Assembly: GCA_040752695.1 (NCBI GenBank)
Contig: JBFMGO010000006.1
Coordinates: 35,568-99,567 of the forward strand
Direction: 5' to 3'
From: a bacterium
Lineage (GTDB): Bacteria; SZUA-182; DTGQ01
Length of the DNA stretch: 64,000 bases
Translations under genes and position numbers: made by a program
Shown: piece after piece, positions 16,213 through 43,868 of the stretch
Position numbering within the stretch: position 1 is the stretch's first letter
How the letters are laid out: every line of letters begins with the position of its first letter
Notes under the pieces: model-generated
Databases searched by the model: none
Seen by the model: only the letters and a program-made list of their open reading frames with translations
Told to the model about the DNA's origin: nothing

Positions 16213-18309
16213 ATGAAGAAATTATTTTTTGTAATTCTCGGTGGATTGATATGGGCTCTTTTTATCCTGTCAAATATTGGAGCAGGGGGAATACTCTGTC
16301 CGAAGGCAAATGCAAGCGAGCCTGCCCGGTTTATCGGGGATACAGTCCCTGCTTTGGATGAATGTCTGGAGATGAGTTCCGGGGTTCTTGACGTAGGGGG
16401 AAGCGGGGGAACAATCGGACAGGAAGTTCAGGTGCCGGTAAACATCCAGTCTGCACCCGATAAAATCTTTTCTCTTGGCTTTGAAGTCACGTATGATTCA
16501 AGCGTATTGGAATACCTTGATTACACCGGAGGAGATCTCACAGCCTCTTTCACCGTGTTCGACATCTATCCAGCCGGAACCGGCAGGTTGAGAGTAGGGG
16601 GCTTGACCATCGGAGACGGCATTGCCCAGGGAGCAAGCGGTTGTGTAGCCGTCCTCAACTTCAGGGTTATCGGTGGTGTAGATAATGGATGCTATGCCGT
16701 CAAGCTGGAAAATCTGCGGGATGATGTCACCTCCTTTTCCTCCAGTCAGGGCTGCTTCTGTATGAATGATACCATTCCGCCCGAACTTACCTGCCCAGCC
16801 GACGGCGTGATTGCTCAGACGGAAAATGGCGGTGCTCCGATTGACGATCCTGATGTACAGGCCTTCCTGGCCAGCGCCGTTGCCAGGGATAATGCGGATG
16901 GCAAGGTTGCCGTGATCAATGACGCTCCTTCGGTCCTCCCTCCCGGAGAGAGCACAATAACGTTTACTGCTACAGACAGGAGTGGTAATAGCGCTTCCTG
17001 CTCGGCCACCATCACCGTTCAACCGCCGGAGTGTGCGGAAGACAATTCAGGAGCACTGAACATTGAAGGAGCCCAGGGGAATCTGGGAGACGAAATTCAA
17101 ATTCCGGTAATGATACATGCTGCACCGGCTGAAGCCTCTGCCCTTGGCTTTGAGGTAATCTATCAACCATCCGTTCTCGAGTATTCAGGGTTTGTAAAAG
17201 GTGATCTGGTGTCCTCTTTCGTTATGTTCGATGTCATTCTCGTTGGTTCAGGCAGGTTGAGAGTAGGAGGCTTGACTACAGGGGAGAGTATTCCGCGGGG
17301 GACAAGCGGCTGTGTGGTCGTACTTGCATTTAAGGTTAAAGGCGGTGTGGACAATGGGTGCTATGCCGTCAAGCTGGAAAATCTGCGGGATGATGTCACC
17401 TCCTTTTCCTCAAGCCAGGGTTGCTTCTGTATGAATGATACCATTCCGCCCGAACTTACCTGCCCAGCCGACGGCGTAGTTGCTCAGACGGTAAATGGCG
17501 GCACTCCGATTAACGATCCTGATGTGCAAGCCTTCCTGTCCGGTGCCATGGCCAGGGATAATGCGGATGGCAAGGTTGCCGTGATCAATGACGCTCCTTC
17601 GATCCTTCCGCCGGGAAAGAGCATCATAACCTTTACTGCAACGGACAGGAGCGGTAATAGTATTTCCTGCTCGGCCACCATCACTGTCCACCTGCCACGG
17701 TGTACGGAAGACGAGTCAGGAACGCTGGACATTGAGGGAGCTCAGGGAAAGGCAGGTGACGAGATTGAAATTCCAGTAAGGTTACAGGCTGCACCGCACA
17801 GTGTCTCTGCCCTTGGCTTTGAGATAACCTATAACCCATCCGTTCTCGAATATTCAGGGAATCAAAGAGGTGATCTGGTGTCTTCTTTCACCCTGTTCGA
17901 TGTCAATCCAGCCGGTTCCGGCAGGTTGAGAGCAGGCGGATTGACTACCGGAGAGAGTATTCCGCAAGGGACAAGCGGATGCGTCGCTGTGCTTAAGTTC
18001 AAGGTCAAAGGCGGTATGGAAGGCGGATGCTATCCCGTTGCGCTGGAAAACTTGCGGGATGATCTTACTCAGCTTTCCTCGAGTCAGGGCTGTTTCTGTA
18101 TCCGTAGCTGCAGCGGGGACCTCAATGGAGATGGATTTGTTACTCCTACGGATTCTCTCATCGTCTTTCAGTGTTTTCTTAACCAAGGCCCGTGTTCAGA
18201 TTGCACTGACGTTAATCAGGACGGCACGACTTCTCCGGCAGATGCCCTTTGCTTGTTTCAACACTTCCTGGGGTCTTCCTCCTGTCTGAACCGCCAGAGG
18301 TTGAGATAA
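16213..18309 (+). CDS. Secreted scaffoldin-like protein: 3 cohesin + 2 HYR domains + C-terminal dockerin
   Basis: Signal peptide; three repeats of G.E..(V/I)PV..LGFE(V/I).Y..SVLEY..GDL; two DTIPPELTCPAD...ITFTATDRSGNS; dockerin loops GDLNGDGFVTPTD and DVNQDGTTSPADAL. Confidence 0.85.
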   Translation: MKKLFFVILGGLIWALFILSNIGAGGILCPKANASEPARFIGDTVPALDECLEMSSGVLDVGGSGGTIGQEVQVPVNIQSAPDKIFSLGFEVTYDSSVLEYLDYTGGDLTASFTVFDIYPAGTGRLRVGGLTIGDGIAQGASGCVAVLNFRVIGGVDNGCYAVKLENLRDDVTSFSSSQGCFCMNDTIPPELTCPADGVIAQTENGGAPIDDPDVQAFLASAVARDNADGKVAVINDAPSVLPPGESTITFTATDRSGNSASCSATITVQPPECAEDNSGALNIEGAQGNLGDEIQIPVMIHAAPAEASALGFEVIYQPSVLEYSGFVKGDLVSSFVMFDVILVGSGRLRVGGLTTGESIPRGTSGCVVVLAFKVKGGVDNGCYAVKLENLRDDVTSFSSSQGCFCMNDTIPPELTCPADGVVAQTVNGGTPINDPDVQAFLSGAMARDNADGKVAVINDAPSILPPGKSIITFTATDRSGNSISCSATITVHLPRCTEDESGTLDIEGAQGKAGDEIEIPVRLQAAPHSVSALGFEITYNPSVLEYSGNQRGDLVSSFTLFDVNPAGSGRLRAGGLTTGESIPQGTSGCVAVLKFKVKGGMEGGCYPVALENLRDDLTQLSSSQGCFCIRSCSGDLNGDGFVTPTDSLIVFQCFLNQGPCSDCTDVNQDGTTSPADALCLFQHFLGSSSCLNRQRLR

Positions 18310-20051: not shown

Positions 20052-23000
20052 ATGGCTGCGTATTTGATGCGCCGTGTACTCAGTAACTCGGCAAGTGTGC
20101 ATGCAACCGTGATCAACTCCAAGGCTCAGTTGATGAAATTCCTGTTGATAAGACAGATGATAAGAGGGGCACAGGTAAACAGGCATCTGGGAAGCCTGTT
20201 CCCTGACCTTTCCTCAAACGCTCTTCTCCGCCTGGCATCAAGGGCATTGATAGTGCCAATAATATTCGTAATGTCAATGACATCGATCGTATCACTTGTA
20301 TCAATGATATCACTGGCGCCTGGGGTCGGCCTCTGTGCCTGCCTAAGACCAATCACCGTGCAGGAGATAAAGAAAGCACTGGACCTTCGAGACCTCGGTA
20401 TCTCAGATGAGATACTGGATTCTCTCTTGAATCAGGAATCGAGTCCTGGGACAACTTATCGCAGTATGGCGGAAGTCGCTCATGTGGAGCTGTCATATGC
20501 TGCGTATCTGCGCCAGAGAAATCTTCATTCCGCACTGTCTCTCCTGGAGGGTATAAGCGATGTGAATGAGTGGCTCCGAAGGTCTGCTGATTTTGCCGGG
20601 ATGGGTACAGTTCGAATTGACGCAGCACGAGCCGGAGCGGCACGGAACAATGCAAATCAAACCAGAGCAAATCAAACCAGAGCAGCTCAAGATGGAACAA
20701 CTCAAGATGGAGCATTACAAGCCGGAGAGATAGCACAAGCTATCATGGCTCAAACCGGCACCTCCGCTTGTGTGGGACTGGTGAGCAGTATGCTGGGATA
20801 CAGTCAGGCTGACCCTTTCGACGGTCATGATTCGAACGATATTCCTCTCCTTAACGAGGTCGTAAGCCGATACCTGGCTCTACGGGGATACGATGAGGGA
20901 GGGGGTGAGGGAAGCGAAGATGACAGGTCTGCCTGGCAAAAGGTAAAAGATGCCTATAGGACCAGCAGATATTTTACCATGCATGAGCCCAAAATTCATG
21001 CTCTAGCCGAACACTCCTGGGTAGCCACCTACCGTGAGGCGGATATCAGGCAATTTGTTCAGGCTTTAAGCCAGCAAATAAAGGGTCTGACAGCAAGATA
21101 TAAAGCATATGAGTCAGGGCAGAATATCGGGATTTTCACCACCAGTGACCTTTCGGCCAGGGTGTTTAATTATGGTGACGATTGTATCTCCAATATTATC
21201 CTCAGGGGCCGGGCCAGTCATCAGCCTGTACCGGCATATCAGCCTGAGACAGGGAATCAGCCGGTGCGAGTGAATCAACCGATGTCAGGGAATTGGCCTG
21301 AAGCGATGTATCAGCCGGCACCGGATCATCGATCGGCACCAAGGTATCTAAAGACGCCGGGGTACCTCCTTGAGACCACCACCGGGCCGGAGACGAGGAT
21401 CTGCGGAAAAAGCAGCAGCGATATTTTTTTCAATGGCGGCATAAGCACGGTAAGTTCCCTGGATTTTCTCATTATGGGCACGCAGGTGAGCATCCCCTTT
21501 TCCCCAGATCCTGTCCTCCCGGATTTTTCTTTCAGAACGCTCTCATCAACCGAACATGCACCGAAAGAAGTCTACCTGAATGCCTTATCACATACCATAG
21601 CTTCTCAAGGGTACGCTGTTAATGGTTATCTCTGGGATTTCGGGGATGGGACCCCGGTCAGGGCCGGGGGTGAAATGACTCATATTTACGCCAGACCAGG
21701 AGAATATACCCTGACCCTGACCGTAATCCTATCCAATGGCCTCACCAGAACCATTCAAAAGAAAATTGACGTTTTGAATCCGGTAACAGCGTATTTCACT
21801 TCAAATTCAAAAACCAATTCCAAGGCACATGATCCTTCATCCGGCGATCAATGGGAGGGCTGGGCTCCCCTGACGGTCAGTTTCGATGCCTCCGGATCTT
21901 CTCATCTTACGGGATCGATAACCGGTTATCATTGGGATTTCGGTGATAAGTGCCAGGGGGTTGGACGAACCGTCAGTCATACTTTTACTCTTCCCGGAAG
22001 GTATGAAGTTACCCTGACTATTTCGGACAGGAACAATAATGCTGATACCATGAAAAGATCCCTTACGGTACTCAATCCCATTCAACCGGACTTTTTGGTG
22101 TTACCGGGTTCAGGCCCGGCCTTGACGAATTTTACCTTCGATGCCTCAAAATCCTCCTCCCGTCTGGGTAAAATTGTCTCTTATGAGTGGGATTTCGGCG
22201 ATGAAGATACTAAAGCCGGCCCGATGGCAACCGGACCACAGTCGAGCGGCCTGCAAGAGACAGGACCGTGGCTGAGCGGCCCACAAGCGACCGAACCGTG
22301 GCTGAGCGGACAACGAGCGACAGGATCACAGCCGAGCGGCCCACAAGCGACCGGACCACGGGTAACCCACCAGTATGGCAGCAATGGATATAAAACCGTC
22401 ACGCTGACGGTACAAAATGAACAGGGAATATCGGCACGAATAAAAAAGCCGGTCACTGTAGGCACCGGAATCAGTGCGTTTATCTCTAACCAGACGATCG
22501 ACTGTGATACCGTATGGTCTCCATATCATATTTATGTGCTTTCAGGAAGCATTACCATAGCTGAAGGCGCTACATTGACCATAGAACCGGGAACCGTAAT
22601 CAAGGGAGGGAATCAATCGAGCAGGCTTATCGTCAACGGGGCTTTGGTGGCCAGGGGCACGAAGCGGGCACCGGTAATCTTTACCTCTTTCCGGGACGAT
22701 ATCTTCGGGGGAGACACGAACGCTGACAGCAGCGCCTCTGTGCCCGCAGCCGGTGATTGGGACGGGATTTATTTTTACAGCACCAGCACTGATTCTGCCT
22801 GTGTCCTGGATCATTGCCTTATCAAGTATGCAGGCTACGGGAGTCAGGGCTGCGGCATCTCTTGTAAAGGTGCTTCACCTGTCATAAGCAATTGCATGAT
22901 CAGCCATAACCGCACTTACGGAGTGAGGCTCAAGAGTGCCTCTCCTGCCATAAGCAATTGCACCATCGCTCAGAACAGCCACTCAGGGGTTTTCATCGAA

Positions 23001-24935
23001 GGCGATTCAAGCGCGGTCATAACCGGATGCAACATTTATCATAACAGTGTCTACGGCATCTGCTCCTTCAGCACGGCAACTGTGCACATCAGGCGCAATA
23101 CCTTTGCAGGCAACGGCTCTTACGCAGTCTATCTATGCTGCACCAGTGGCATTTCCACTGCCGATAATACCATAAGCGACTACGGTGGAGGAATATACCT
23201 TTTAGGAACCGTTACCACAGATATGCGGCTTGCCGGCAATCCCGGTTGTCCTTATGTTCTCAATAATCTGACTGTAGCCGAAGGTGCCACCCTGACCATA
23301 GAGCCGGGAGTGGTAATCAAAGGGGATATGCAGGGCGGCAGGCTCGTCATTAATGGGGCTTTGGTGGCTAAAGGCACGGAACTGGCACCGGTTGTCTTTA
23401 CCTCTCTTCGTGATGATGCCTGTGAAGGGGATACGAACAATGACGGCAGGGCTTCACTTCCTGCCGCAGGGGATTGGGACGGAATTTTCTTGTGCAGCAC
23501 GAGAAATGATTCGGCCTGTGTTCTGGACCGTTGCATCATACAATATGCCGGATATGGCAATGAAGGCTGCGCTCTTTCCTTAAGCAATACATCACCTGTC
23601 TTAAGCCATTGCATTATCAACCATAATCGTATCTATGGGCTGCGGATTCAGGGAGCCTCACCCATCATCAGTAATTGTACTATCGCTCACAGCGGTCATT
23701 CAGGCATTCTGAGTGAAGGCAATTCCAATCCTGTTATTATCGGCTGCATTATCCATAGTAACGATACCTATGGGATCTACTCCTTTAGCACATCCTCTCC
23801 ACTCATCGACCGCAATACTTTTTCCGACAATGGCTCCTGTGCAGCCTATCTGTGCTGCGCCAAGGGTATTTCCGTTTCCGGTAATACTGCGACCGGCAGC
23901 GGTGGAAAGATCTGCCTTTTAGGGACAATCACCAACAGCGGCAGGATGGGACATAATCCGAACTGTCCCTATGTTCTCAACAGCCTGACCGTAGCGGAGA
24001 ACGCCAGCCTGACCATAGAGCCGGGAGCAGTGATTAAGGGAGAAAATCAGGCCAGCAGGCTGGTTGTCAATGGAACCCTGGTGGCCAGGGGCACGGAGCG
24101 GGATATGATCGTCTTCACCTCTTTTCGGGACAATGCCTGCGGAAGAGATACGAATCCGGACAGGGCATATGAGGGAGAGAATCTGGCCAGGGCATATGAG
24201 GGAGAAACGAATGATGCCGGGAGCAGCTCTCTTCCCGCTGCCGGAGACTGGGATGGCATCTTTTTTTATGATACCAGCAATGATTCGGCCTGTGTCCTGG
24301 ACCATTGCCTTATCCGGTATGCAGGATACGGCAGCCAGGGCTGCGGCATCTCTCTGATCAGTGCCTCACCAGCTATAAGCCACTGTACGATCAGTCATAA
24401 CCGCGCTTACGGCCTGAGGCTCCAGGACGCATCCAGCCGGATAAGCAACTGTACCATTGCCGATAACGCTCACTCGGGAATCCTGAATGAAGGCAATTCA
24501 TACCCTGCCATCACAGGATGCAATATTCATCATAACAGCGCATATGGGATCTACTCCTGGGGTACGGCAACTCCGCTCATTGATCGTAATACTTTTGCAG
24601 ATAACGGCTCCTATGCAATATCCATGAGTTGTACCGGCAGTATCTCCATTTCCGATAATACCGTAAACGGCAATGGCGGAGGTATTTACCTTTCGGGCGC
24701 GGTCACAGTGGACACTCATCTGGCAAACAATCCGGATTGCCCTTACGTTCTCAATGATTTGACCATTGCCGATGGTGTTACCCTGACCATAGAGCCGGGG
24801 ATAGCGATCAAGGGTGGCCACCAGTGCAGCCAGATGGTCATCAATGGAGCTTCGATGACGACCGGTACCCTTTCCTCTCCCATTATAGAGAACGGGAACA
24901 ACTGGAATGATATACCCATGCTGCGCTGGAGGTAG
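20052..24935 (+). CDS. Large surface/secreted protein: 3 PKD domains plus about 3.5 right-handed parallel beta-helix modules
   Basis: Three WDFGD PKD motifs; repeated TLTIEPG.VIK...FTS.RDD...GDWDGI.F modules with PbH1-like ISNCTIA repeats; true start probably downstream of 20052. Confidence 0.85.
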   Translation: MAAYLMRRVLSNSASVHATVINSKAQLMKFLLIRQMIRGAQVNRHLGSLFPDLSSNALLRLASRALIVPIIFVMSMTSIVSLVSMISLAPGVGLCACLRPITVQEIKKALDLRDLGISDEILDSLLNQESSPGTTYRSMAEVAHVELSYAAYLRQRNLHSALSLLEGISDVNEWLRRSADFAGMGTVRIDAARAGAARNNANQTRANQTRAAQDGTTQDGALQAGEIAQAIMAQTGTSACVGLVSSMLGYSQADPFDGHDSNDIPLLNEVVSRYLALRGYDEGGGEGSEDDRSAWQKVKDAYRTSRYFTMHEPKIHALAEHSWVATYREADIRQFVQALSQQIKGLTARYKAYESGQNIGIFTTSDLSARVFNYGDDCISNIILRGRASHQPVPAYQPETGNQPVRVNQPMSGNWPEAMYQPAPDHRSAPRYLKTPGYLLETTTGPETRICGKSSSDIFFNGGISTVSSLDFLIMGTQVSIPFSPDPVLPDFSFRTLSSTEHAPKEVYLNALSHTIASQGYAVNGYLWDFGDGTPVRAGGEMTHIYARPGEYTLTLTVILSNGLTRTIQKKIDVLNPVTAYFTSNSKTNSKAHDPSSGDQWEGWAPLTVSFDASGSSHLTGSITGYHWDFGDKCQGVGRTVSHTFTLPGRYEVTLTISDRNNNADTMKRSLTVLNPIQPDFLVLPGSGPALTNFTFDASKSSSRLGKIVSYEWDFGDEDTKAGPMATGPQSSGLQETGPWLSGPQATEPWLSGQRATGSQPSGPQATGPRVTHQYGSNGYKTVTLTVQNEQGISARIKKPVTVGTGISAFISNQTIDCDTVWSPYHIYVLSGSITIAEGATLTIEPGTVIKGGNQSSRLIVNGALVARGTKRAPVIFTSFRDDIFGGDTNADSSASVPAAGDWDGIYFYSTSTDSACVLDHCLIKYAGYGSQGCGISCKGASPVISNCMISHNRTYGVRLKSASPAISNCTIAQNSHSGVFIEGDSSAVITGCNIYHNSVYGICSFSTATVHIRRNTFAGNGSYAVYLCCTSGISTADNTISDYGGGIYLLGTVTTDMRLAGNPGCPYVLNNLTVAEGATLTIEPGVVIKGDMQGGRLVINGALVAKGTELAPVVFTSLRDDACEGDTNNDGRASLPAAGDWDGIFLCSTRNDSACVLDRCIIQYAGYGNEGCALSLSNTSPVLSHCIINHNRIYGLRIQGASPIISNCTIAHSGHSGILSEGNSNPVIIGCIIHSNDTYGIYSFSTSSPLIDRNTFSDNGSCAAYLCCAKGISVSGNTATGSGGKICLLGTITNSGRMGHNPNCPYVLNSLTVAENASLTIEPGAVIKGENQASRLVVNGTLVARGTERDMIVFTSFRDNACGRDTNPDRAYEGENLARAYEGETNDAGSSSLPAAGDWDGIFFYDTSNDSACVLDHCLIRYAGYGSQGCGISLISASPAISHCTISHNRAYGLRLQDASSRISNCTIADNAHSGILNEGNSYPAITGCNIHHNSAYGIYSWGTATPLIDRNTFADNGSYAISMSCTGSISISDNTVNGNGGGIYLSGAVTVDTHLANNPDCPYVLNDLTIADGVTLTIEPGIAIKGGHQCSQMVINGASMTTGTLSSPIIENGNNWNDIPMLRWR

Positions 24936-25370: not shown

Positions 25371-26891
25371 ATGCTCTTACATCAGCAATTTATTTCAATA
25401 GCCAAAAAATATGGAAACAAGCTTTTCATTATTGACCGCACTATAGGCAAAAGCTTAACATATTCAAGAGCTTTGATTGCATCCTATATTCTAGCTGATA
25501 AGCTCCAAAGATACGAGTCGGGCTTTCTTGGCATCATGATACCGACTTCTTCCGGTTGTGCGCTGTCCATTTTGGGTACTTTAATGAGCGGGCGGACTCC
25601 TGTTATGATTAACTATGCAACCGGGGCAGCTTATAATGCTGAATTTGCCCAAAGAAAGTGCGGTTTTAAAACTATTATAACCTCCAAAGCTCTCCTCAGG
25701 AAGATAAATTGTCGCGTGCTCAAAGGAATGGTCTTTATTGAGGACATCATGGAGAGCGTCTCAACAGTGGATAAAATAAAAGCTGCCGTGAAGTCGAAAT
25801 TACCGATGAAGTTTGTGATGAAAACTATCTCTAAAGGTGACAAAGACGATACCCTGATCGTTTTGTTCACCAGTGGCAGTGAAAAGGAGCCCAAAGCCGT
25901 ACCATTGACTCATCGCAATATTGTTTCGAATATCGAAGGACTTACCCAGGTTTTCAATTTTTCCGAAAAAGATAGTATGCTGGCCAATCTTCCCTATTTC
26001 CACGTATTTGGCCAAACGGCTAATCTTTGGCTGCCCATATATCATGGCATGACAATTATCGCTTACGCTAATCCGCTCGATTATAAAACTATCTGCACTA
26101 TTGCCCGTGAGGAAAAACCAACCTTGCTGGCTGGCACTCCGGCTTTTTTTAAGGGGTATCTTCAAAAATCGGAGCCGGGAGATTTTCAAAGCATCCGTAT
26201 TGCCCTGACTGGTGCTGACCGGTGTCCGGATGCGCTCCTCAAGGGATTTATGGAAAAACATAATTTACCACTGCTCAACGCTTATGGAACTACCGAGACA
26301 TCGCCAGCTATTTCAGTAAATACGCCGGAATTCAACAAGCCTGGAAGTGTCGGCAAGGTACTTCCCAATATGCAGGTGAGAATCGAAAATTATGAGACCG
26401 GCCAGGAATGTGCTGCCGATGAGGTAGGAAGGATTCTGGTCAAGGGCGATTCTGTGATGAAAGGGTACCTTAATGATTTTGAGGAGACCTCAATGCACCT
26501 TCGAAATGGTTGGTATGACACTGGTGATATGGGAATTATGGACGAGGATGGATATCTCTGGCATGCGGGCAGGTTAAGGAGGTTCGTTAAAATCGGGGGG
26601 GAAATGATCTCACTGGTTCGCGTAGAGGATGTCCTGACAAAACTGCTTCCGGAGGATATCTCCTGTTGCGTTGTCGAGGCTCCCGATGCACTGAAAGGTG
26701 CCAAGATAGTTGCCGTGGTTACCCAAAAGATTGACGAAAAACGCATCCTTGAGCAGATGGCTGAGCAACTTCCCAACATTGCACTGCCCAGACAGTTCGT
26801 GGTCATCGAGAACCTCCCAACCATGGATAATATCAAGGTGGATTCCCGGGCCGTTGCAGAAATGGCGCTCAGCAGACTGGGTAAACGATAA
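25371..26891 (+). CDS. AMP-binding acyl-ACP/acyl-CoA synthetase (Aas C-terminal-like)
   Basis: LFTSGSEKEPKAV, LPYFHVFG, YGTTETSP, WYDTGD, GRLRRFVKIGGEMISL. Confidence 0.9.
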   Translation: MLLHQQFISIAKKYGNKLFIIDRTIGKSLTYSRALIASYILADKLQRYESGFLGIMIPTSSGCALSILGTLMSGRTPVMINYATGAAYNAEFAQRKCGFKTIITSKALLRKINCRVLKGMVFIEDIMESVSTVDKIKAAVKSKLPMKFVMKTISKGDKDDTLIVLFTSGSEKEPKAVPLTHRNIVSNIEGLTQVFNFSEKDSMLANLPYFHVFGQTANLWLPIYHGMTIIAYANPLDYKTICTIAREEKPTLLAGTPAFFKGYLQKSEPGDFQSIRIALTGADRCPDALLKGFMEKHNLPLLNAYGTTETSPAISVNTPEFNKPGSVGKVLPNMQVRIENYETGQECAADEVGRILVKGDSVMKGYLNDFEETSMHLRNGWYDTGDMGIMDEDGYLWHAGRLRRFVKIGGEMISLVRVEDVLTKLLPEDISCCVVEAPDALKGAKIVAVVTQKIDEKRILEQMAEQLPNIALPRQFVVIENLPTMDNIKVDSRAVAEMALSRLGKR

Positions 26892-27069: not shown

Positions 27070-27639
27070 CTACCAGACATCACCGCAAAAGTTCTGATAT
27101 TCGCAATCCGCACATTGGCTCCTGTTCCTGGGCTGTATGGGCAGCAGCTCCTTTTTAATCATTTCCCGTATAGAAATCAATATATCGAGAGTCCTTCTTT
27201 TCAGCTCCCTGGTGATATGAAAAACCTCGATATCATGCAATGGGAGCAGGTACACGAATCCCCAGTTAACCAGTATTCCGTAAAGGTCTTCCAGCAGCAG
27301 GGAATAAGCCGTCAACTGATAAAGCTGGCTTTTCGCTGGTTTTTGTCCGGTATTCCTGAATTCTACGGGGAATAAACCCTCCCTGGATTTTACCATGAGA
27401 TCCAACTGGCCGCTCAGCCCCAGCCTCGTAGAAATCAAGGGGACCTGGAATAACCGCTCTCCCTCGTCCAGGTGATATTTTTTTAGCTTGCGCCTGTGTT
27501 CAAGTTTTTCGAAAACATCCTGATAATTACCTGGTATGGGAGGAGAACATTTTTTTTCGAGTGGTAAGATATAGGAAAAAAAAACTACTCTCGGACAGTC
27601 AATGTACTGCTTAACATCGGAAATATTAAAAGTGATCAC
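27070..27639 (-). CDS. cas4: Cas4-family protein with divergent nuclease motifs
   Basis: KQYIDCPR, GLSGQLD, PVEFR, QLTAY and C-terminal CADCEYQNFC (4 Fe-S Cys). Confidence 0.9.
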   Translation of the reverse strand: MITFNISDVKQYIDCPRVVFFSYILPLEKKCSPPIPGNYQDVFEKLEHRRKLKKYHLDEGERLFQVPLISTRLGLSGQLDLMVKSREGLFPVEFRNTGQKPAKSQLYQLTAYSLLLEDLYGILVNWGFVYLLPLHDIEVFHITRELKRRTLDILISIREMIKKELLPIQPRNRSQCADCEYQNFCGDVW

Positions 27640-27818
27640 TTATTCAGTACCTTCTTTCACAAGGGGGCATATAATGCTCTCATGATCCAGCCATAATGAG
27701 GTCACCTGGAATTCTCGAATTCCTTCCATGGTCGCTAACGGCTCCCCTTCCCCCCTTGGAAGAGGGAGAAGAGGAAGTATTCAGGGATAGAGGCATATTA
27801 CTCATTGTTTATTACTCA

Positions 27819-29027
27819 TCAGGCCCACTCTTTGAAGCGAAAGGGCTTATATTTTTTCTCACCCTGGAGAAAAGCGGCCAGACGCCGGGCCTGGATCTGA
27901 ATAATCGATTTGATCCGATATTCTTTCCCTTCATACACTTCACTGGATTCAAGCCGCTCCAGAATTTTTTTGGCAATGGACTGCCGTGTTTCCGGATACA
28001 ATAATCCATTGTGCATGCGACATATTTCCCCCATACTCACCTGGGTAATAATCGGGAGGTCCACAATCGGCTGTCTGAATTCCTTAACCAGGTCCAGCAC
28101 CAGTGAGGATTTGCCCGGCTGGTCCTCTACATGCATAAAACCCGCAAAAGGTTCGAGACCTGCATGCAGGACTGCGCCCCACACTTGTGAATATAAAAGT
28201 CCATATCCATAGTTCAGCATCGCACTCACAATCTGCCCGGCATGCTGGTAGACTCGGCCAAGGAATTCGAATTTAAGGTCAATGATCTTGCTCAGACCAT
28301 CCCAATACATTCTTTCCCCCTCTCCATCGATATCCATCAGTGCAGATCGAACTTCATCGATGTTTTCCCCTTGGATCCTCCTGACTCTTGCCTTCAATAG
28401 CTTGATGGATCGGGCAGCCTCCTGAACCTTTCCAAGCCGCTTTACGTCCTTCTGCCTGAAGGATCTTTGAAAGAACAGGAGGAGTTTTTCCTGGTTATGT
28501 AATGCAACGGTCAGGATGGCTTTACTCAATTCCACCCCCCGCCTGTCCCTGAAAGCCAGGATCTGTTCTCTTCGTGTAATGGTGGTGGAGGTCAGCAGGG
28601 GAGAGGTAATCATGGCGAATGGCTTTCCCATAGAACCCAGGAAGCTGAGCCGGACTCCTTTTTGACACAAGATGGAAATGAGGTCGCTGGAAATGGATAC
28701 TCCCTTTGAGGAAATAATGACCTCATTCATATGAAGCAGGGGAAATTCATAGATCACCTTACCTTGCTTACTTACAATCAGCCGTTCATTCTTTTCCTCA
28801 AGAAACACCCCAAATCCGGAAATGATAAGTTGTGAGGACCTTTCGTTTTTTACCATAGAAAGCCCCTCATCAATGATTACCTCCTCTCCTTCGTCAGGCT
28901 CCCAATGAATTCCGATTGGGATAGGATCTGGCGTATTGGTAAAAAGAGCCAATTGCCGAGGATGATATACCCTTTTGGGTCCCGGTATATGCTCAGGATA
29001 GATCTTGGGTATGGCTTTGGCTTGCAT
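27819..29027 (-). CDS. cas1: Cas1-family protein with N-terminal extension and substituted active site
   Basis: GFGVFL..ERLIV, GVSISSD, TRREQ, LNYGYGLLY, AGLEPFAGFMH, GKSSLVLDLVKEFRQPIVD, IQIQARRLA. Confidence 0.92.
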   Translation of the reverse strand: MQAKAIPKIYPEHIPGPKRVYHPRQLALFTNTPDPIPIGIHWEPDEGEEVIIDEGLSMVKNERSSQLIISGFGVFLEEKNERLIVSKQGKVIYEFPLLHMNEVIISSKGVSISSDLISILCQKGVRLSFLGSMGKPFAMITSPLLTSTTITRREQILAFRDRRGVELSKAILTVALHNQEKLLLFFQRSFRQKDVKRLGKVQEAARSIKLLKARVRRIQGENIDEVRSALMDIDGEGERMYWDGLSKIIDLKFEFLGRVYQHAGQIVSAMLNYGYGLLYSQVWGAVLHAGLEPFAGFMHVEDQPGKSSLVLDLVKEFRQPIVDLPIITQVSMGEICRMHNGLLYPETRQSIAKKILERLESSEVYEGKEYRIKSIIQIQARRLAAFLQGEKKYKPFRFKEWA

Positions 29028-29490
29028 AGCTTTTTTCTCCCTCTCTCCTCAATATGCTATAGAGCCAATTTGGTCTCATTCCTGATTTTGGTATCACTTT
29101 ACCTTTATATATCTATGATGGTCAAATCTTCCTTATCGCCTGATCACCTCCTCAATGATTGACAGGGAAAACTTGAAAACACCTGTCCTGCTGCTTGTCG
29201 TATGGCTGTGTCGTAAACGGTACCCATGGACTTTTTGTAATTCAAGCGGATTCTGAATCATGATCCTGAAATGATTCTATCCAGAGGCAATTATGATCCT
29301 GAAAATCTGTGCCAAATTATTATCACTACAACGAGGCTTCCAAAAGGTAGCATACTCTTCAGAAGAATGGGGGAAAAGCCTTATTGTATTATCATTATAT
29401 CATAATATGGAAAATAAATAAATAGTCATTAAAATATTAAGATAGGAATGATTATTTATTAAATGTAAGCCTTAAGACCTATAGATATAT

Positions 29491-29555
29491 GAAAACAATA
29501 TACGAAAATAATATATGGAAGCAATATTCGAAAGCAATATTCGGAAACAATAAGC
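29491..29555 (+). repeat. 5 x 13-bp AT-rich tandem repeat
   Basis: GAAAACAATATAC / GAAAATAATATAT / GGAAGCAATATTC / GAAAGCAATATTC / GGAAACAATAAGC. Confidence 0.75.
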
Positions 29556-29936
29556 GGCCAGTTACCCCCCTTACCCTAACCCTCTCTCCCCTTCAAAGGG
29601 GCGAGGGGGGCGCCCGCCTGCAAAATAGATTTAATAAAATAAAAATTTATCAAATTCATATATTATAAATTATAATAAGTATTTTGGTATTGACTAAAGA
29701 GCTATCTATATGCTATTTTTTTATACAAGTGACAAATTAGTTTTTCTTATTTTAACTAGTTTATTCAGCAAACAATGAACATTTTGCATCCGTTTGAACC
29801 TATACCTCGGTATGCCATTCATTTTTCAGCCTGTTTGGCACATGTCGCGGAAAATGCCCGGCCGGTTATCGTTACCTTTCCGAGTTTTTTCCATCGCGGT
29901 TAATCATAAAAGAAAGAGAGAAAGAGGTATGCATCT

Positions 29937-32900
29937 ATGAAAAAATATGTAATTTGGGCTGGTTTTGGTTTCGGAATCATCGTACTCCTGGGAGGCTTGC
30001 TGGCTCCTGCACGGCAGGTCAAAGCAATGGAGCATCACATCCATGCTGGTGATGCTGGTGGAAATGCTCAAGTCTGCAAAGCAGACCGTGTTCGATTCTT
30101 TGGTGATGGAAGTATCCAGCGTTATGCCGGCAGCAGTGTATATGGCTATGCCGAAGGCGGCGGTATGCAGGGCTATGCCGAAGGAAGGATGCTGCGCTAT
30201 GCCGAAGGCGGCGTGCAGGGATATGCCGGAGTCAGCATTCAGGGAACAGCCAATGCTGTCAGGAACAGAGGTGTCACCATCGTCCCCCAGGGAACCGATG
30301 CTGGAACCGTTTTTGGGGACTCATTTGCCAAGAGGTTCGCCATCAATAATACACTAAAAGCCATTGTTCCTGACGTTGATCCTCTCCCTGTAGTCGCTGC
30401 CGAGGGGAAAGTAGACCTGTCCGCACCTTTAGCCACCGCGAGCGACGGGGAATCGATCACAGCTACGACCACCGATCCCACAATCTATGTCGTACCCGGC
30501 ATCTATACGGTAACCTGGACTTACGATGACGACTTCGGCAACACGGCAACGCAGAAGCAGACAGTGGTTGTAATGCAGCCATCCGTCCAGCAGGTACCAG
30601 GGGAAGTGACCATTTCCGATAGAAAGGAATCAAACCTGGCAGCCAGGTCAGTCAATATATCCTGGCGGACAAACTTCAACAGTGCGGGAGGAGAGGTGCA
30701 CTATAGTACGGACAGCCAATTAGCGGATTATTTGACTGCGGTCGACAGCCATCCAGGGAAAATCCACCGGGTAGAGCTTCGCGGTTTGAAGCCGGAACAA
30801 ACCTATTATTACGAGATTCAAGCCGGCACCTCTATCGATAACCGGGATGGGCAGTATTATCAATTCACTACTGCTGCGGTGCAGATGCCGTGCCCGAACT
30901 TTTTTATCGGCGGCAGGATCCAAAAAGAAGATCAGAATCCGCTGGCCGGGGCTTTCATATCAGTGACCGTCAGTCACGGCGGAGTTGATTCCTATCCTCT
31001 TTCCACCGTTACGGGCAAGGATGGTTTCTGGGTCTTTAACCTCGCTGATCTTAAAAAATCAACAACCGGTGAGCCTCTTTGCAGCTCTTCCGGTGATTCT
31101 GTTTTAATCGAAGTGCAGAGCGATGATGGATGCTCATTTGCAGATTCAAAACTCGTCTCTGACCTGGTCCAGGCCAGGAATTTCGCCCTTATGGCCCCTG
31201 CCCAGGTTGAAAAACCTGTTTTATCCCCCGCACTCACGGTTTTTACTGATTCTGTTATGGTCTCCATGGATTGTCCTACGGATGGAGCTGCGATCCATTA
31301 TACCCTGGACGGGAGCGAGCCTACCAGGGATTCGCAATTGTATACCGGCCCCCTGATCCTGCGTGGTACAGCTTCCATCAAGGCCGTAGGATGCAAAACG
31401 GACTGGTTGATCAGTGATATCACCCAGGGATTTTACATCCTGGATCAGGACAGGGATGGAATAGCGGATGAATTTGACAACTGCTTCACGGTAGCCAATT
31501 CTTCTCAGACCGATAGTGATGGTGATGGTTTGGGAAATGATTGCGATAATTGCCCGGCAATCGTGAATGCAGGGCAGGAGGATGCCGACGATGACGGCTG
31601 TGGAGATGTCTGCGATTGCAGGCCGCAAGACCCCCAGAGCTATCCGGGAGCCATTGAGCTCTATGACGGCCTGGATAACAACTGTGACCGGATCGTAGAT
31701 GAAGGATTCGCCCCATTTCATATTGACACTGCTGCTCCCCTGATTATCGAGGCTGGCTCAGACTACCTCTACCATTGTCATGTGAAGAGCCCGGTCGATG
31801 CAGACTGGCAATGGAGTCTTGAAAATCTTGAGGGAACGCAAGCGGCTTCTGGTTCAGGCAGCGGGCTGTTCTTCGATCTTTCCATACCGGCAGCACTCCT
31901 TGAGCCCGGTGATTATAATCTCAAACTGAAGGCCCGGGCCAGTAACGGGTATGCAGAAGATACCCAGCGGTCGAAAGTACATGTCAGGGAGATTTCATCG
32001 CTCGAAGGAGATCTGCTCTTAGCCGATTTTGCCGATTCAGCTAATTCAGCTAACCTTACCTGTCCACCTGCCGGTGGTATTCTGCCGGTCAGGATCGACC
32101 TGATCAACAAAGCCAATAACCTCCTGGCGGCCAGTACGGAAGCTGGTCCAGTCAGTATGGAAGCCAGGCCAGCCAGCATCGAAGCCGGACTATCACGCGT
32201 TATTCGTATCGATGTTGACTGCGTCAGTGGACACTATACTGTGCAGGGTCTGGACGAAGGTATCTATACGGTCGTGGTTAAAGACAATACCCCTGACGAC
32301 GACAACCTGTATGCGGATTCAGGGCACTACGGAAGCTTCAGTCCCTCCAGAGAGAATGTACACATTGCTGAAGGCATGAACACTCATACTATTCATCTGA
32401 CCAGGCCGACCCTGGACCAGTGTCTGATTACGGGAGTTGTAGAGGCGGGAGACGGGCAGACTGACCTGCTCCTTTGTGGTTCAGATCTTAACGATACCCA
32501 AAAGAGAATAACCCTCCAGGGAAGTGGCTCCTTTGCCTTCTCCGTTGTTCAGGGAGAATACGGCCTTTTGACCGAAGCAGTCGGCTATCAGGGCTCTTTC
32601 ATACAAATACCGGCTATTGACAAGAGCAGCGCCTGTCCTCTGGACCTTGGACGAATCGCTTTGGTCGAGCAGGTAAAACCATCGGTTTCTATCGTACGGC
32701 AGGATGTGGACCGGAGTGGGAATGAGGATAAGGATGAGGATCAGGATCAGGGTAAGGATAAAGACAGGGGAGAGGACCAGAATGAAGGCCAGGATGCGAA
32801 TCATGAGCTGATTTTAAACTTGCGGTATAATAATCCGGATGGAAAAAGCAGAGACTGGTCTGATCGACGCCTTCAGTTGACCCTGTTTGACAAGGGAGAT

Positions 32901-34169
32901 GATCTTGACCATGACGGTCTTCCTGATGATCCCGAATCACCAAAAGGAGTGACCATCCAGCCCATGACGGTTGACCCTGCACTGGCCGAAAACCCGGTAT
33001 TCCCCATTCAGTACCTTAAGGCCCTGATTCCTCTTGGCAGACTGGATGATCCAGCTCAAGTACAAAATTGTATGACTGAGGTTTCAGACCCCGTCACAAA
33101 CCGCGTGATCGCCTACTATGTTGCTATCCAGGGGAAAATTATCAGTGTTTCTCAGACTCCGGGTATAAACAGTGCCGGTTCTACTGCCGGTTCCACGGAT
33201 ACTCCTGAGGCTGGCTCAGAAGTATTGGCCACCTTCACCCATATCTTCAGGGTTGACCGGCCGTCCTTACCGTTACAGCAGAATAAGCCGGTGACTCAGA
33301 CCGTAGAGACACTCGACCTTGCCGCCATGACCAGCAAGACGGATATACCTGTGGTGATGGCCCTGAATGCGGGAATGGCAGGCGGTCTCAAAGGGGAAAG
33401 CAGCGGGAGCGGGATTTTAGTGAAAACATCTTTTAATGCAGCTAATATGAATCCTGCCTTACTGGCCAGTGTCGATGATGAGGGGAACAAGAATCAGCCG
33501 CTCGATCTGAATCAACAAGATAATCTGAAACTTACCCTGAAGATCGAATGCAAGGAAAATCCTGATGATCCTGAGAGTACGATGGTCGATATACAATTTA
33601 TGGACTCCGACGGCAAAAGAGTGGAATACAATCCTCCGGATCCTCAAACCGGCCTGCGGAACCGGAACGCAGAGCCGATCATTATCTTTATCCCGCTCCA
33701 TCAGGCCCTTCAGAAAAAGATCCATGAGCCTGACGTGACTCTGGCCGATATCGAGGCCCTTATTGCCAGAACTTCGGCTGATTTTGAGCTGACCAACGGC
33801 AAGTGGCAGCCGAAAATCGGCCTGTATGGCATTTATTTTAAGGGATCAAACGGCAAGCCTGAAGTGTTCCGCCCAGATCCTGACGCAGGCGAGAGAATCG
33901 ATATCACGGCCTCCGAAGAAGGGGTCCTCCTGGCCAGGGTGATGGCGGGACATACCAGTGCGTGGTTTGTCTCATTCTCCGCTCCGACCGGAGACATGAA
34001 CAACGACGGAATCGTCACTCCCGCTGATTCCCTTACCGCTTTCCGGTGCTACCTTGGAGCAGGCTCCTCCTGTAACCGTGCTGATGTCAATCTCGATGGT
34101 ACTATTACGCCAAGCGATGCACTGTGCATCTTCAAAAGATACTTGGGATTACCTAATTGCATGAAGTGA
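29937..34169 (+). CDS. Secreted multidomain protein: HYR-like, FN3/PAP-N-like, Fn3-associated (CHB_HEX_C-like), thrombospondin type-3, MopE-like repeat, C-terminal dockerin
   Basis: Signal peptide; [84 protein letters not shown] and [15 protein letters not shown]. Confidence 0.85.
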
Positions 34170-43400: not shown

Positions 43401-43868
43401 AAAACCCTGCCTTTCCACTTCTTCAAGTCCCAGGGTACGGCAAAGCTCCTCTTTGGTCCTGGCGCTGACCATCATATCAACCAGGGCTTTGTTTTGCACG
43501 ATACTGCTGATTCGGGAAAGGATCTTTAAATGAGTCTCGCTTTCAGCCAGGGGAGTGATAAAAAGGATGACAAGGTATACAGGCTTTCCATCCGGGGAAT
43601 GAAAATCTATTCCATGCTGCGAGATGCCTACAAAAATCATCGGCTCTTTTAAATCCTCGATCCGGGCGTGAGGAATGGCTACACCCCCGCCAAGGCCGGT
43701 GGATTGCGTTCTTTCCCTTTCCAAAACCCGGTGGAGGATTTCTTTCTTATGCTGAATATTCCTGTAAGGATAGGTAGAGTCTATGATTTCTGGAATTGCC
43801 TCCTCGGCAGTACCGGATTTTAGGTCTGGATTTACCAGACATTTATCGAACAATGAAGAAATTTTCAT
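40479..43868 (-). CDS. PTS EIIA domain fused to a type II (IIC-like) cation-transporting P-type ATPase
   Basis: EIIA: RERTQSTGLGGGVAIPHAR; ATPase: PADGR, SGES, NVPEGL, DKTGTLT, KGAP, DPPR, MITGD, TGDGVNDAPALKKADIGVAMG. Confidence 0.93.
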   Translation of the reverse strand: MKISSLFDKCLVNPDLKSGTAEEAIPEIIDSTYPYRNIQHKKEILHRVLERERTQSTGLGGGVAIPHARIEDLKEPMIFVGISQHGIDFHSPDGKPVYLVILFITPLAESETHLKILSRISSIVQNKALVDMMVSARTKEELCRTLGLEEVERQGFLNLTRNEIFHEIGTTEEGLSAEEAKSRLKEYGRNTLKKIRKIPLVIRLLSNFSNLLAILMWVGSVLSFLVGMPEVGWAIIAVIFLNGIFAFWQEFKAEKAIEALKDLIPSYARVIRNGEEEKVLSSDVVPGDVAIFEEGDNIPADGRLIEAHELRVDNSIFSGESRPGYKMAEPCLNGRNFIWTEMPNLVFAGTSVVSGNGKAVIISTGMDTEVGRIAYLTQTVKEELSPLQKQINRLAKIISLIAIGGGLFFFLIGRLTAAMSLTASAIFAIGIIIANVPEGLLPTVTLSLAVAVQRMARRHALVKKLSSVETLGSTSVICTDKTGTLTANQINVTKIWLSGQVIDVTGIGYEPKGTFLLQGQSLSPGGHASESFPGHAPESFPGHAPGSCPETPPDLSSGPSPGSPKSPHAPSADHAPSAEFFKRKDVDLMMKICVLCNTSKLVPPTKEGRYWSIIGDPTEGALLVLAAKAGFDIEQDRRVFPLVKRFPFESVRKRMSSINEMKDGTLYALVKGAPREILDLSSRIMLDQDIVALTPAGRAEIDTRIDHFASEGLRVLAIAFRRLSAAEAAASNAETVERDLVFIGLTAMYDPPRPEVTEAISLCRRAGVRVVMITGDYGITARAIARQVGMITSESAEIITGTQLSLMSDEQLKDRISSREVIFARVNPEHKLRIVGAFKDLGNVVAVTGDGVNDAPALKKADIGVAMGIRGTDVAKEAAEMILTDDNFASIVAAIEEGRAVFDNAKKFMTYIFAHLVPEIVPFVFYALFHIPVPITVMQILAIDLGTETLPALALGTEKPEPGIMDLPPRPQKRGIVDAMVIFRGYIFLGLLAAAAVLAAYFLILSTGGWKLGMQLEPNDTVFANPLHLKAVTMIFAGIVVIQIANVFACRSEKYSIFKIGFSTNKLILWGIIFEVIFIAALVYIPPLQRIFNTTALTWNDWGLLAAFMVIIFTLEELRKWTTRRKWPD

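Follow-up and report, generated by a model that had tools for sequence, protein, structure and literature searches.

The window, that is, the whole 64,000-nucleotide stretch of DNA analysed here, belongs to a fragmented metagenome-assembled genome (MAG; 96.6% complete, 239 contigs) and carries a cas1 and a cas4 gene side by side (Table 1). As an earlier, sequence-only reading had claimed, both open reading frames are intact, with zero internal stops between the ends assigned to them, and their neighbours, an acyl-ACP/CoA-type ligase and large surface proteins, are unrelated to the pair. The absence of cas2 and of an array from the locus, reported in the same reading, is confirmed as well: neither lies in the gap between the genes or downstream of the pair, and the window as a whole contains no CRISPR array. 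No PolB, HNH or transposase gene was found among the neighbours, no inverted repeats were found flanking the pair, and a promoter and terminator scan gave no signal exceeding that of shuffled sequences.

Table 1. Features of the cas1-cas4 locus, in window positions
Feature	Position	Strand	Description
cas1	27819..29027	-	402 aa, full length, without internal stop
cas4	27070..27639	-	189 aa, full length, GTG start, without internal stop
cas1-cas4 spacer	27640..27818	-	179 nt; site of cas2 in canonical relatives
Gap hairpin	27744-27774		Local, 12-bp stem, inside cas1-cas4 spacer
Cas1 N-terminal extension, residues 1-65	28833..29027	-	Outside the Pfam/TIGR Cas1 profile
Cas1 codon 234, GAT (Asp)	28326..28328	-	First metal-ligand Glu position
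Cas1 codon 299, catalytic His kept	28131..28133	-	His in 120/120
Cas1 codon 315, AAG (Lys)	28083..28085	-	Last metal-ligand Glu; DLVEEFR to DLVKEFR
Cas4 codon 95, AGG (Arg)	27355..27357	-	Catalytic Lys position of the (D/E)xK motif

The gap had been described as 180 bp long and as holding a hairpin repeat. The hairpin is present, as a single stem, and the length is right to within a nucleotide; the repeat, however, is not one. A single 20-nt match lies elsewhere in the genome, and the hairpin was rejected as a dispersed repeat. The entire gap folds no better than shuffled sequences (z -0.22). No cas2 remnant was detected at six loci, where a Cas2 profile scored only below 0 bits against six-frame translations of the cas1-cas4 gaps. 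Similarly, a comparison of 14 canonical repeat consensi with the orphan loci detected no vestigial CRISPR repeat, only chance matches of 8-13 nt (E at least 0.13).

Cas1 matches PF01867 in a profile search (E 3e-54, 184 bits) and TIGR00287 over its full length (196 bits, profile positions 1-327 of 327). Its AF2 model (mean pLDDT 81.4) has the two-domain Cas1 fold; the best PDB match is Cas1 of A. fulgidus (4n06; TM 0.87, target-normalised; E 1.8e-26), and a casposase structure, 6opm, is among the top structural matches. The Cas1 profiles begin only at residue 66-67, and the N-terminal extension that precedes them, present throughout a family of ~400-aa Cas1 proteins, is modelled with low confidence (pLDDT 45-61).

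Residue conservation was counted over 120 family members, the query included. H299 and D312 are each found in 120/120, whereas D234 and K315 each occupy a position that is Glu in 118/120 and also in the solved homologues 4n06, 6opm and 8d3p; the metal-binding and catalytic tetrad is therefore D-H-D-K in the window and E-H-D-E in the family. These retentions and substitutions agree with the sequence-only reading, as does the loss of further conserved residues, namely at Q265 (Asp in 112/120), S268 (Asn in 114/120), Q303 (Arg in 114/120), L324 (Arg in 107/120) and A175 (Lys in the family). E301, directly after the catalytic His, is a one-residue insertion particular to the window Cas1 (a gap in 119/120). 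The tetrad was matched to E141, H208, D218 and D221 of E. coli Cas1 through the motif pattern and the solved homologues; Ala substitutions at the E. coli equivalents abolish nuclease activity (Krupovic et al., 2014; PMC4046053). Judged by its residues, the window Cas1 is probably catalytically disabled.

Cas4 belongs to PF01930 (E 2e-14) and TIGR00372 (89.5 bits). A phmmer search against PDB sequences found nothing, whereas a profile search did match, aligning R95 with K102 and D80 with D87 of the G. sulfurreducens Cas4/1 fusion. The AF2 model (pLDDT 81.8) has a PD-(D/E)xK fold, with a type I-C Cas4 as its best PDB match (8d3l_I, TMq 0.70). All four Fe-S cysteines (C15, C176, C179 and C185), which had been read as retained, are invariant in the 20 aligned sequences. 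Among the RecB motifs, D80, E93 and the QxxxY pair Q108 and Y112 are retained, and the catalytic Lys is replaced: the window has E93-F-R95 against D-F-K in all canonical loci scored, and Q105 in place of a His found in every canonical relative scored. Both changes had been noticed from the letters alone. However, a missing GxxxH His, also counted there as damage, is uninformative because active-looking relatives do not conserve that His either. Cas1 E380A, Cas4 D87A and Cas4 K102A each eliminate or severely impair acquisition and PAM selection in the G. sulfurreducens fusion, where deletion of cas2 also sharply lowers acquisition (PMC6547450). Two of the window's changes, Cas1 E234D and Cas4 K95R, are charge-conservative and were counted against inactivity. 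The predicted complex of Cas1 and Cas4, with a score of 0.06 and a mark of 0.32, speaks neither for nor against their association.

Orthologues sharing the derived state exist, as a search suggested by the sequence-only reading established; they were obtained by genome search, a single-protein scan of genome contigs having given none and an alignment-based scan two. In the Cas1 tree, six lineages, namely the window, P0002 (L020), P0003 (L021), P0004 (G002), P0006 (G001/L019) and P0007 (G003), form one monophyletic clade (SH-aLRT 98) whose sister has canonical residues. Three of its genomes are sisters of the window genome from within the same genus or family, and in 6/6 lineages cas1 and cas4 occur without cas2 or an array. 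It nests inside a canonical cas1-cas2-cas4-array family of ~400-aa Cas1 proteins (Nitrospira, Thermodesulfovibrionales, Binatia and other MAGs), with which the orphan pair shares 49-57% full-length Cas1 identity, N-terminal extension included, the Cas4 subfamily and the gene orientation. The canonical loci accompany type I-B, I-D-like and II-D (cas9d) effector modules; their cas1 and cas4 flank a cas2 gene, and an array of 37-nt repeats follows ~100 nt beyond cas4. The orphan clade lacks both cas2 and the array. Among 77 such metagenome loci, cas2 is present in 70, the order is cas1-cas2-cas4 in 61 of the 63 with all three genes, and arrays are found in 23 of the 36 with room after cas4.

The two sets also differ in their active sites. 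All 77 canonical loci keep the Cas1 signature, and canonical loci retain every catalytic and shell residue, unlike the orphan clade. There, the catalytic Lys is absent from 9/9 different Cas4 sequences, replaced by R in P0271, P0272, P0273, P0276 and L016 of G001 and by I, S, N and H once each, whereas the nearest canonical relative retains K. The Cas1 tetrad is a full E-H-D-E in 3/6 lineages and a conservative E-H-D-D in one; the clade-wide losses are the conserved shell around the tetrad in Cas1 and the catalytic Lys in Cas4. The pair is a conserved unit, syntenic within the genus, and its gene tree agrees with the kinship of the genomes. The ligase is a neighbour only in genus g1, and in G003 an FHA protein and a Ser/Thr kinase stand at its position.

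Pairwise NG86 estimates, which are rough because dS approaches saturation in the majority of pairs (1-2.7; 0.4-0.9 in the best), give a cas1 dN/dS of 0.09-0.18 (median 0.126, 12 clade pairs) against 0.138 in the canonical family (560 pairs), a cas4 dN/dS of 0.11-0.25 (median 0.157, 6 clade pairs) against 0.145 (110 pairs), and 0.07-0.09 for the neighbouring ligase. The ratio, which had been proposed as a check, is thus well under 1 and matches the value for canonical modules. Within Cas1, the catalytic core has lost constraint and the 65-residue N-terminal extension has gained it. Compared with 300 canonical sets of equal overall divergence, the clade has a lower identity in the catalytic region 226-330 (0.69 vs 0.82; higher in 300/300 sets) and a higher mean pairwise identity in residues 1-65 (0.70 vs 0.46; 0/300 sets as high), a region-wise contrast that differs from a formal test because the six clade sequences are mutually related. 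The canonical family has 176 positions with a conservation of 90% or more. At 37 of these, including R99, R184, R303, R324 and K78, the conserved residue is missing from four or more of the six clade members; 94 are kept in all six.

Searches of the window genome found neither a second Cas1 nor a Cas2 or RAMP protein, and no Cas3 over the cut-off. A scan of all 239 contigs of the fragmented MAG found no CRISPR array; arrays often remain unassembled in such genomes. The search for a cas1-cas2-cas4 paralogue and arrays elsewhere in the genome, also suggested earlier, thus yielded no cas2, second cas1 or normal array. Unlinked to the pair, a type I-B Cascade operon without cas3 lies on contigs C94/C13 and is accompanied by a cluster of degenerate repeats. 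It was missed by a PF01905 (DevR) search of G000-G003, which found nothing because that family does not cover Csh2-type Cas7, and was later found through Cas5. This cas6-cas8b-cas7-cas5 operon is common to all three genus-g1 genomes; the repeat cluster follows cas5, and species partly share the sequence that comes after its repeat-like units, a pattern expected where spacers are no longer being added. The Cascade of genus g1 is of the Csh/TM1802 kind, whereas I-B loci with canonical relatives of the window Cas1 are of the Cst kind. G002 has two full CRISPR systems and G001 has cas2 and RAMP genes; in G003 (76% complete) the pair is present and no Cascade, cas2 or RAMP gene was found.

It appears fairly likely that an adaptation module of the cas1-cas2-cas4-array type left a domesticated remnant in the window, namely an exapted Cas1-Cas4 pair that no longer integrates spacers. 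Since the active sites are damaged and cas2 and the array are missing, yet selection has kept the genes across related bacteria, the pair probably now does a different, non-cutting job. In the ancestor of this small family of bacteria, the locus would have lost cas2, its array and its effector genes, Cas4 would have lost its catalytic Lys and Cas1 many conserved basic and polar residues around the active site; single lineages would later have lost Cas1 metal ligands too, the window through E234D and E315K. Purifying selection maintains both genes, and they pass vertically as one unit amid changing neighbours, which is why they are read as a pseudo-enzyme pair. The Cas1 dimer and the Fe-S Cas4 would remain folded and would probably bind each other as they do in Cas4-Cas1 complexes, whereas spacer integration would be gone and DNA cutting probably gone as well. 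The pair may act through binding, to DNA ends, to branched DNA or, via the strongly conserved Cas1 N-terminal extension, to a protein partner, and its role would not depend on spacer acquisition. Some metal-dependent chemistry may survive in the clade at large, as three of its six Cas1 proteins keep E-H-D-E and one has E-H-D-D.

The preference of the sequence-only reading for exaptation over neutral decay is supported by the orthologues, by the low dN/dS and by a genome without cas2, a second cas1 or a normal array. A decaying paralogue, that is, non-functional genes in which stops are yet to come, would suit the window Cas1, which has the most damaged active site of the clade, and the disappearance of cas2 and the array. 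However, open reading frames intact in six lineages at dS of 0.4 to >2 with dN/dS of 0.1-0.25, a window terminal branch that is not long (0.16, vs 0.14-0.53 for other clade members) and the 94 family positions kept throughout the clade have already largely refuted decay, which is very improbable. A pair that is still enzymatic would be kept by selection too; its nuclease or integrase activity, changed in chemistry or specificity, would be directed at a substrate other than CRISPR, for instance during DNA repair, with Asp serving for Glu, Arg for Lys, and E316 or another residue assisting. Purifying selection as strong as in active modules, all four Cas1 ligands in half of the clade members, and the window's H299, D312, Cas4 D80 and E93 and Fe-S cysteines are consistent with this. 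Even so, continued catalysis seems unlikely: K315 is a charge reversal at a metal ligand, E316 is no compensating novelty because canonical family members have it without exception (120/120), S, I, N and H at the Cas4 Lys position of clade relatives mean that no basic catalytic role is conserved there, and constraint was lost precisely in the catalytic region.

Two further possibilities look beyond the locus. The presence of a casposase among the top structural matches, and the service of Cas1 homologues as casposon integrases, could point to part of a mobile element, either casposon-like or a transposon-borne adaptation remnant, but the neighbourhood lacks PolB, HNH, transposase and flanking inverted repeats, the position is syntenic in the genus, the gene tree fits genome kinship, and the catalytic residues that casposases keep are lost, which leaves this origin hardly credible. 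There is a small chance that the pair acts in trans with CRISPR components from other loci, either regulating adaptation, or blocking it as a dominant-negative, in genomes with full systems, or partnering the Cas3-less I-B Cascade and its degenerate repeats. The full systems of G002, the cas2 and RAMP genes of G001, the operon shared by the genus-g1 genomes and the partly conserved sequence after its repeat-like units would fit such a role; against it, the pair and Cascade are unlinked, the Cascade is of another kind than that at I-B loci of canonical relatives, and G003, at 76% completeness, has the pair with none of these partners found. A dominant-negative regulator, offered as an example by the sequence-only reading, is unlikely in the window genome because it lacks adaptation machinery, be it cas2 or a second cas1, to regulate. 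In a doubtful extension of the exapted-pair reading, both CRISPR pieces would have been domesticated for one non-immune job, with a binding pseudo-integrase Cas1-Cas4 held by the newly constrained N-terminal extension and a Cas3-less I-B Cascade whose degenerate repeat cluster is frozen, perhaps jointly effecting nuclease-free RNA-guided or DNA-structure-sensing regulation.

Cas1 is the most conserved cas gene. To our knowledge, what becomes of adaptation modules once they leave CRISPR loci has barely been explored, and an archaeal assemblage, Cas1-solo group 1, is the sole inactivated Cas1-solo group described; we know of no function for it. The bacterial clade has a clear polarity, given by its active-looking sister lineage, and offers datable losses (cas2, array, Cas4 Lys and Cas1 shell residues), repeated later damage to Cas1 metal ligands and a measurable shift of constraint onto a defined 65-residue segment. 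It provides concrete constructs for testing the role of a Cas1-Cas4 complex without DNA integration, and a non-immune cellular role of Cas1 and Cas4 may come to light.

Among known systems, casposases likewise represent a Cas1 homologue that works without a CRISPR array and have a related fold (6opm). In casposons, Cas1 has its four catalytic residues intact and is encoded together with PolB inside a pair of terminal inverted repeats, whereas the window pair has lost catalytic residues, adjoins a ligase and surface proteins and has no flanking inverted repeats. Reduced CRISPR-Cas variants exapted for non-defence roles have, as here, lost nuclease and adaptation functions and been retained under selection (Koonin and Makarova, 2019; PMC6452270). 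However, the cases in the accessible text of that paper are effector modules (Cas3-less type I, type IV, CAST and V-U5), and an exapted adaptation-module remnant is not among them. No description of a bacterial inactivated Cas1-Cas4 pair was found in the full-text literature outside subscription journals and supplements, including the accessible text of PMC12669027 and PMC6452270. Solo-Cas4 genes resemble the window cas4 in lying outside CRISPR loci, in vertical inheritance and in a dN/dS of 0.06-0.18, but they stand alone and are generally taken to encode active nucleases, whereas the window Cas4 is paired with Cas1 and lacks the catalytic Lys while keeping the Fe-S site (Hudaiberdiev et al., 2017; PMC5704561). 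A precedent for an inactivated Cas4 in a structural role is TP1, the nucleocapsid protein of TTV1 (PMC4625639). Closest in character is Cas1-solo group 1 of Methanomicrobiales, with no CRISPR linkage and an incomplete active site; its authors report no evidence of horizontal transfer and consider its members unlikely to be active endonucleases (Krupovic et al., 2014; PMC4046053). The absence of CRISPR linkage, the incomplete active site and vertical inheritance all recur in the window pair. However, group 1, considered here by its description rather than by sequence comparison, is archaeal, whereas the window pair is bacterial and its cas1, unlike that of group 1, adjoins a co-degenerated cas4. 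The origin of the window clade appears to be independent of that group, since the clade nests in a bacterial, CRISPR-linked family.

The cas1 and cas4 genes of the window are separated by 179 nt, and the identity of both products is supported by profile and structural matches. Cas1 matches PF01867 (E 3e-54) and covers the full TIGR00287 profile (196 bits), outside which lies a 65-residue N-terminal extension; Cas4 matches PF01930 (E 2e-14) and TIGR00372 (89.5 bits). AlphaFold gave confident models of both (mean pLDDT 81.4 for Cas1 and 81.8 for Cas4), the poorly modelled part being limited to Cas1 residues 1-60, and these resemble the solved Cas1 4n06 (TM 0.87) and the type I-C Cas4 8d3l chain I (TMq 0.70). 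The sequence-only reading described two intact frames lacking cas2 and an array and lying among unrelated genes, and this description holds: no CRISPR array was found within the 64-kb window, the gap contains no detectable cas2 remnant, and the neighbours are a ligase and very large surface proteins. The latter, present on both sides, carry cohesin, dockerin, HYR, PKD and right-handed beta-helix repeats. The intergenic DNA of the window is rich in short tandem repeats, and further features are listed in the table.

Coordinates of the features discussed (positions in the window unless a contig or locus is named)
Feature	Position	Strand or orientation	Remarks
cas1	27819-29027	-	402 aa, uninterrupted
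cas4	27070-27639	-	189 aa, GTG start, uninterrupted
Acyl-ACP/CoA-type ligase	25371-26891	convergent	neighbour of the pair
Intergenic region upstream of cas1	29028-29936		900 nt, AT-rich
Imperfect palindrome upstream of cas1	~29560-29625		GC-rich
Tandem repeat upstream of cas1	29485-29552		13/26 nt
Very large secreted/surface proteins	16213-18309, 20052-24935, 29937-34169
P-type cation ATPase	40479-43868		1129 aa, PTS EIIA-2 domain at N-terminus
cas6-cas8b-cas7-cas5 operon, window's genome	C94:53-2256 (L102 2-2256) and C13:77354-79857 (L101 9355-11858)		type I-B, Csh/TM1802
Syntenic Cascade operon, G002	L103 8925-13531
Syntenic Cascade operon, G001	L104 7503-12297
Repeat-like cluster after cas5, window's genome	L101 8781-9354	-
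Repeat-like cluster after cas5, G002	L103 13532-13793
Repeat-like cluster after cas5, G001	L104 12298-13020
FHA-domain protein and overlapping Ser/Thr protein kinase after cas1-cas4, G003	L017 7309-9263	same strand as the pair	gap 82 nt
cas1-cas4 gap, closest metagenomic relative	L020 983-1703		721 nt
Effector genes attached to the Cas1-Cas2-Cas4 module	L027 3011-5221

The pair belongs to a clade of six lineages with derived states in common. A search of 61 related genomes recovered orthologues from the window's own genus (G002, 72% identity; G001, 62%) and from one genome of another genus of the family (G003, 57%); in G004 and G005, which also belong to the family, the only Cas1s are distant ones (28-30% identity). 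A metagenome scan added L020 (77%), L021 (73%) and L019, which is close to G001. At all orphan loci cas4 directly follows cas1; neither cas2 nor an array was found at any of them, and no cas2 remnant is detectable in their cas1-cas4 gaps. The Cas1 tree comprised 40 rows, with all nine orphan-clade rows (two partial) and P0005, the rest being 23 hand-picked sequences of the 113 other family members and 8 outgroups. The clade is monophyletic (SH-aLRT 98) and sister to P0005 (100), which retains canonical residues in Cas1 and in its partner Cas4. The branching order agrees with genome kinship, which points to vertical inheritance. Surroundings differ between members. In G003, a Ser/Thr protein kinase gene overlaps the FHA-domain gene, where the window's genus has the ligase, and this neighbourhood may be a signalling operon context. 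In L020 the gap is filled with long nested palindromes that look like a MITE-type insertion, cas1 and cas4 both being intact.

Canonical relatives were represented by the remaining 77 metagenome loci of that scan. All 77 carry the Cas1 signature E-G-R-(D/N)-N-H-R-D-E-E-(R/K), and every locus scored carries the Cas4 signature C-D-D-K-H-Q-Y-C-C-C. Cas2 was found at 70 (four of the seven misses have <600 nt after cas1) and cas4 at 63, in the order cas1-cas2-cas4 in 61 of these; an array of 37-nt repeats with a period of 72-74 follows in 23 of the 36 loci whose sequence extends at least 350 nt past cas4. Two loci with canonical Cas1 residues, L043 and L091, have 1.7-3.7 kb of downstream sequence with neither cas2 nor cas4 by profiles. 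Upstream effectors are of type I-B (cas8b-cas7-cas5-cas3), I-D-like or type II-D (cas9d), examples being L027 and the upstream regions of L044, L070, L097 and L074. One Cas1-Cas2-Cas4 module family with several effector types is a case of adaptation-module shuffling.

The 120 best Cas1 homologues from a search of 5.8 billion proteins form a family of ~400 aa, all with the N-terminal extension. H299, D312 and E316 are invariant among them, and E234 and E315 occur in 118 each. The substitutions D234 and K315 proposed from sequence are genuine departures, and the window protein is the sole member of the 120 with either change in that form; Glu aligns with both positions in three solved homologues. 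It also departs at D265 (Q), N268 (S), R303 (Q), R324 (L) and K175 (A), and one extra residue, present in no other member, follows its catalytic His. In E. coli Cas1, Ala at the four equivalent residues abolishes nuclease activity (PMC4046053), and Leptospira Cas1 is described with a Glu-His-Glu set of the same His-to-Glu spacing (PMC8610301). Cas4 keeps, as claimed, its four cysteines, which are invariant, as is D80; Q108 and Y112 are retained too. E-F-R replaces the canonical D-F-K. Profile alignment places R95 on K102 and D80 on D87 of the G. sulfurreducens Cas4/1 fusion, in which PAM selection is lost with D87A and K102A and acquisition is sharply lower after cas2 deletion (PMC6547450). 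The supposed loss of a 'GxxxH' His carries no weight, as canonical relatives likewise do not conserve this residue.

Common to the clade are the loss of cas2 and the array and of the Cas4 catalytic Lys, which is missing from 9/9 different sequences (R in four P sequences and in L016 of G001; I, S, N and H once each). Clade-wide Cas1 changes are G235 to E/Q/K (the window protein itself keeps G235), G262 to H/Q, D265 to E/Q, N268 to S/R/D, R303 to Q/H and R324 to L. The canonical family has 176 positions with conservation of 90% or more; all six clade members keep 94 of these, and 37, including five basic residues, are lost in at least four members. Constraint in clade Cas1 is redistributed: compared with 300 random canonical six-sequence sets matched to it in overall divergence (identity 0.62-0.70), identity in the catalytic region (226-330) is 0.69 against 0.82 (canonical higher in 300/300 sets), and in the N-terminal extension (1-65) 0.70 against 0.46 (0/300 as high), a contrast to be taken as descriptive rather than as a test, because the six sequences are related to each other.

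The genome of the window (6.05 Mb, 239 contigs, 96.6% complete) encodes one Cas1 and one Cas4, those of the pair. No Cas2 (two profiles), no RAMP protein, no Cas3 over cut-off and no Cas9 over the family cut-off were found in it, and a scan of all 239 contigs yielded no array, its candidates being coding tandem repeats. Other cas genes came to light in a Cas5 search: the genome holds a Cascade operon that a contig break interrupts within cas8b (ends of C94 and C13). In all three genomes of the genus this operon has neither cas3 nor adaptation genes, and a convergent hybrid histidine kinase comes next. Located 3' of cas5 are 4-7 degenerate repeat-like units sharing the core (GCAT)ACCTnnnGAGGAATTGAAA, spaced ~70-75 nt apart in G002 and irregularly in the other two genomes; the sequence after the units is conserved in part between species. 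The core ACCTnnnGAGGAATTGAAA does not recur elsewhere in the window's genome, the sequences between its units have no other match there, and the units match no Rfam family. The cluster may be a frozen mini-array, and together with the operon it has the look of a second CRISPR remnant, one without nucleases.

The pair is, on balance, best read as an exaptation, that is, a remnant of an adaptation module kept for a role without integration and probably without cleavage. On this reading the remnant gave up cas2, the array and the constraints of an enzyme while being maintained as a two-gene unit; Cas1 and Cas4 would still form a Cas4-Cas1 complex, and the two may work by attaching to DNA structures, or to a partner via the N-terminal extension. 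Exaptation rather than neutral decay had been proposed from the sequence, and the orthologous clade, intact frames and low dN/dS agree with it. By pairwise Nei-Gojobori computation, applied likewise to canonical pairs of similar divergence, dN/dS is 0.09-0.18 for cas1 (median 0.126, 12 pairs; canonical 0.138, 560 pairs) and 0.11-0.25 for cas4 (median 0.157, 6 pairs; canonical 0.145, 110 pairs), and 0.07-0.09 for the neighbouring ligase; the clade ratios are rough because dS is high (YN00 0.4-0.9 for the closest pairs, >1 for most). These dN/dS values match the medians of 0.06-0.18 given for cas4 in PMC5704561. Frames of 1.2 kb and 0.57 kb intact in six lineages at such dS exclude neutral decay, and decay still in progress is very unlikely. 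That the pair is a mobile element is scarcely credible; inverted repeats flanking it were searched for and none were found.

Residual or altered enzymatic activity is an unlikely explanation. The Cas1 metal-ligand tetrad is intact in P0003, P0004 and P0006; it reads E-H-D-D in P0007 (G003) and has K at 234 in P0002 (L020), alongside D234 and K315 in the window. Given this variation, catalysis looks dispensable in the clade, and it has been hit independently at least twice, the window copy being the most damaged. Action in trans with further CRISPR components, the Cascade remnant among them, is quite improbable: G003 has the pair, but no such operon was found in its genome (76% complete).

In the full-text literature searched, nothing like this pair is described. 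The nearest precedent is Cas1-solo group 1 of Methanomicrobiales, which likewise stands apart from CRISPR, is inherited vertically and lacks active-site residues (PMC4046053); on the Cas4 side, precedents are solo-Cas4 and the capsid protein of TTV1, an inactivated derivative of Cas4 (PMC5704561). The window pair differs from these in being bacterial, with an apparently independent origin inside a CRISPR-linked family, in that Cas1 and Cas4 were retained together and degenerated together, and in that constraint has moved to the N-terminal extension.
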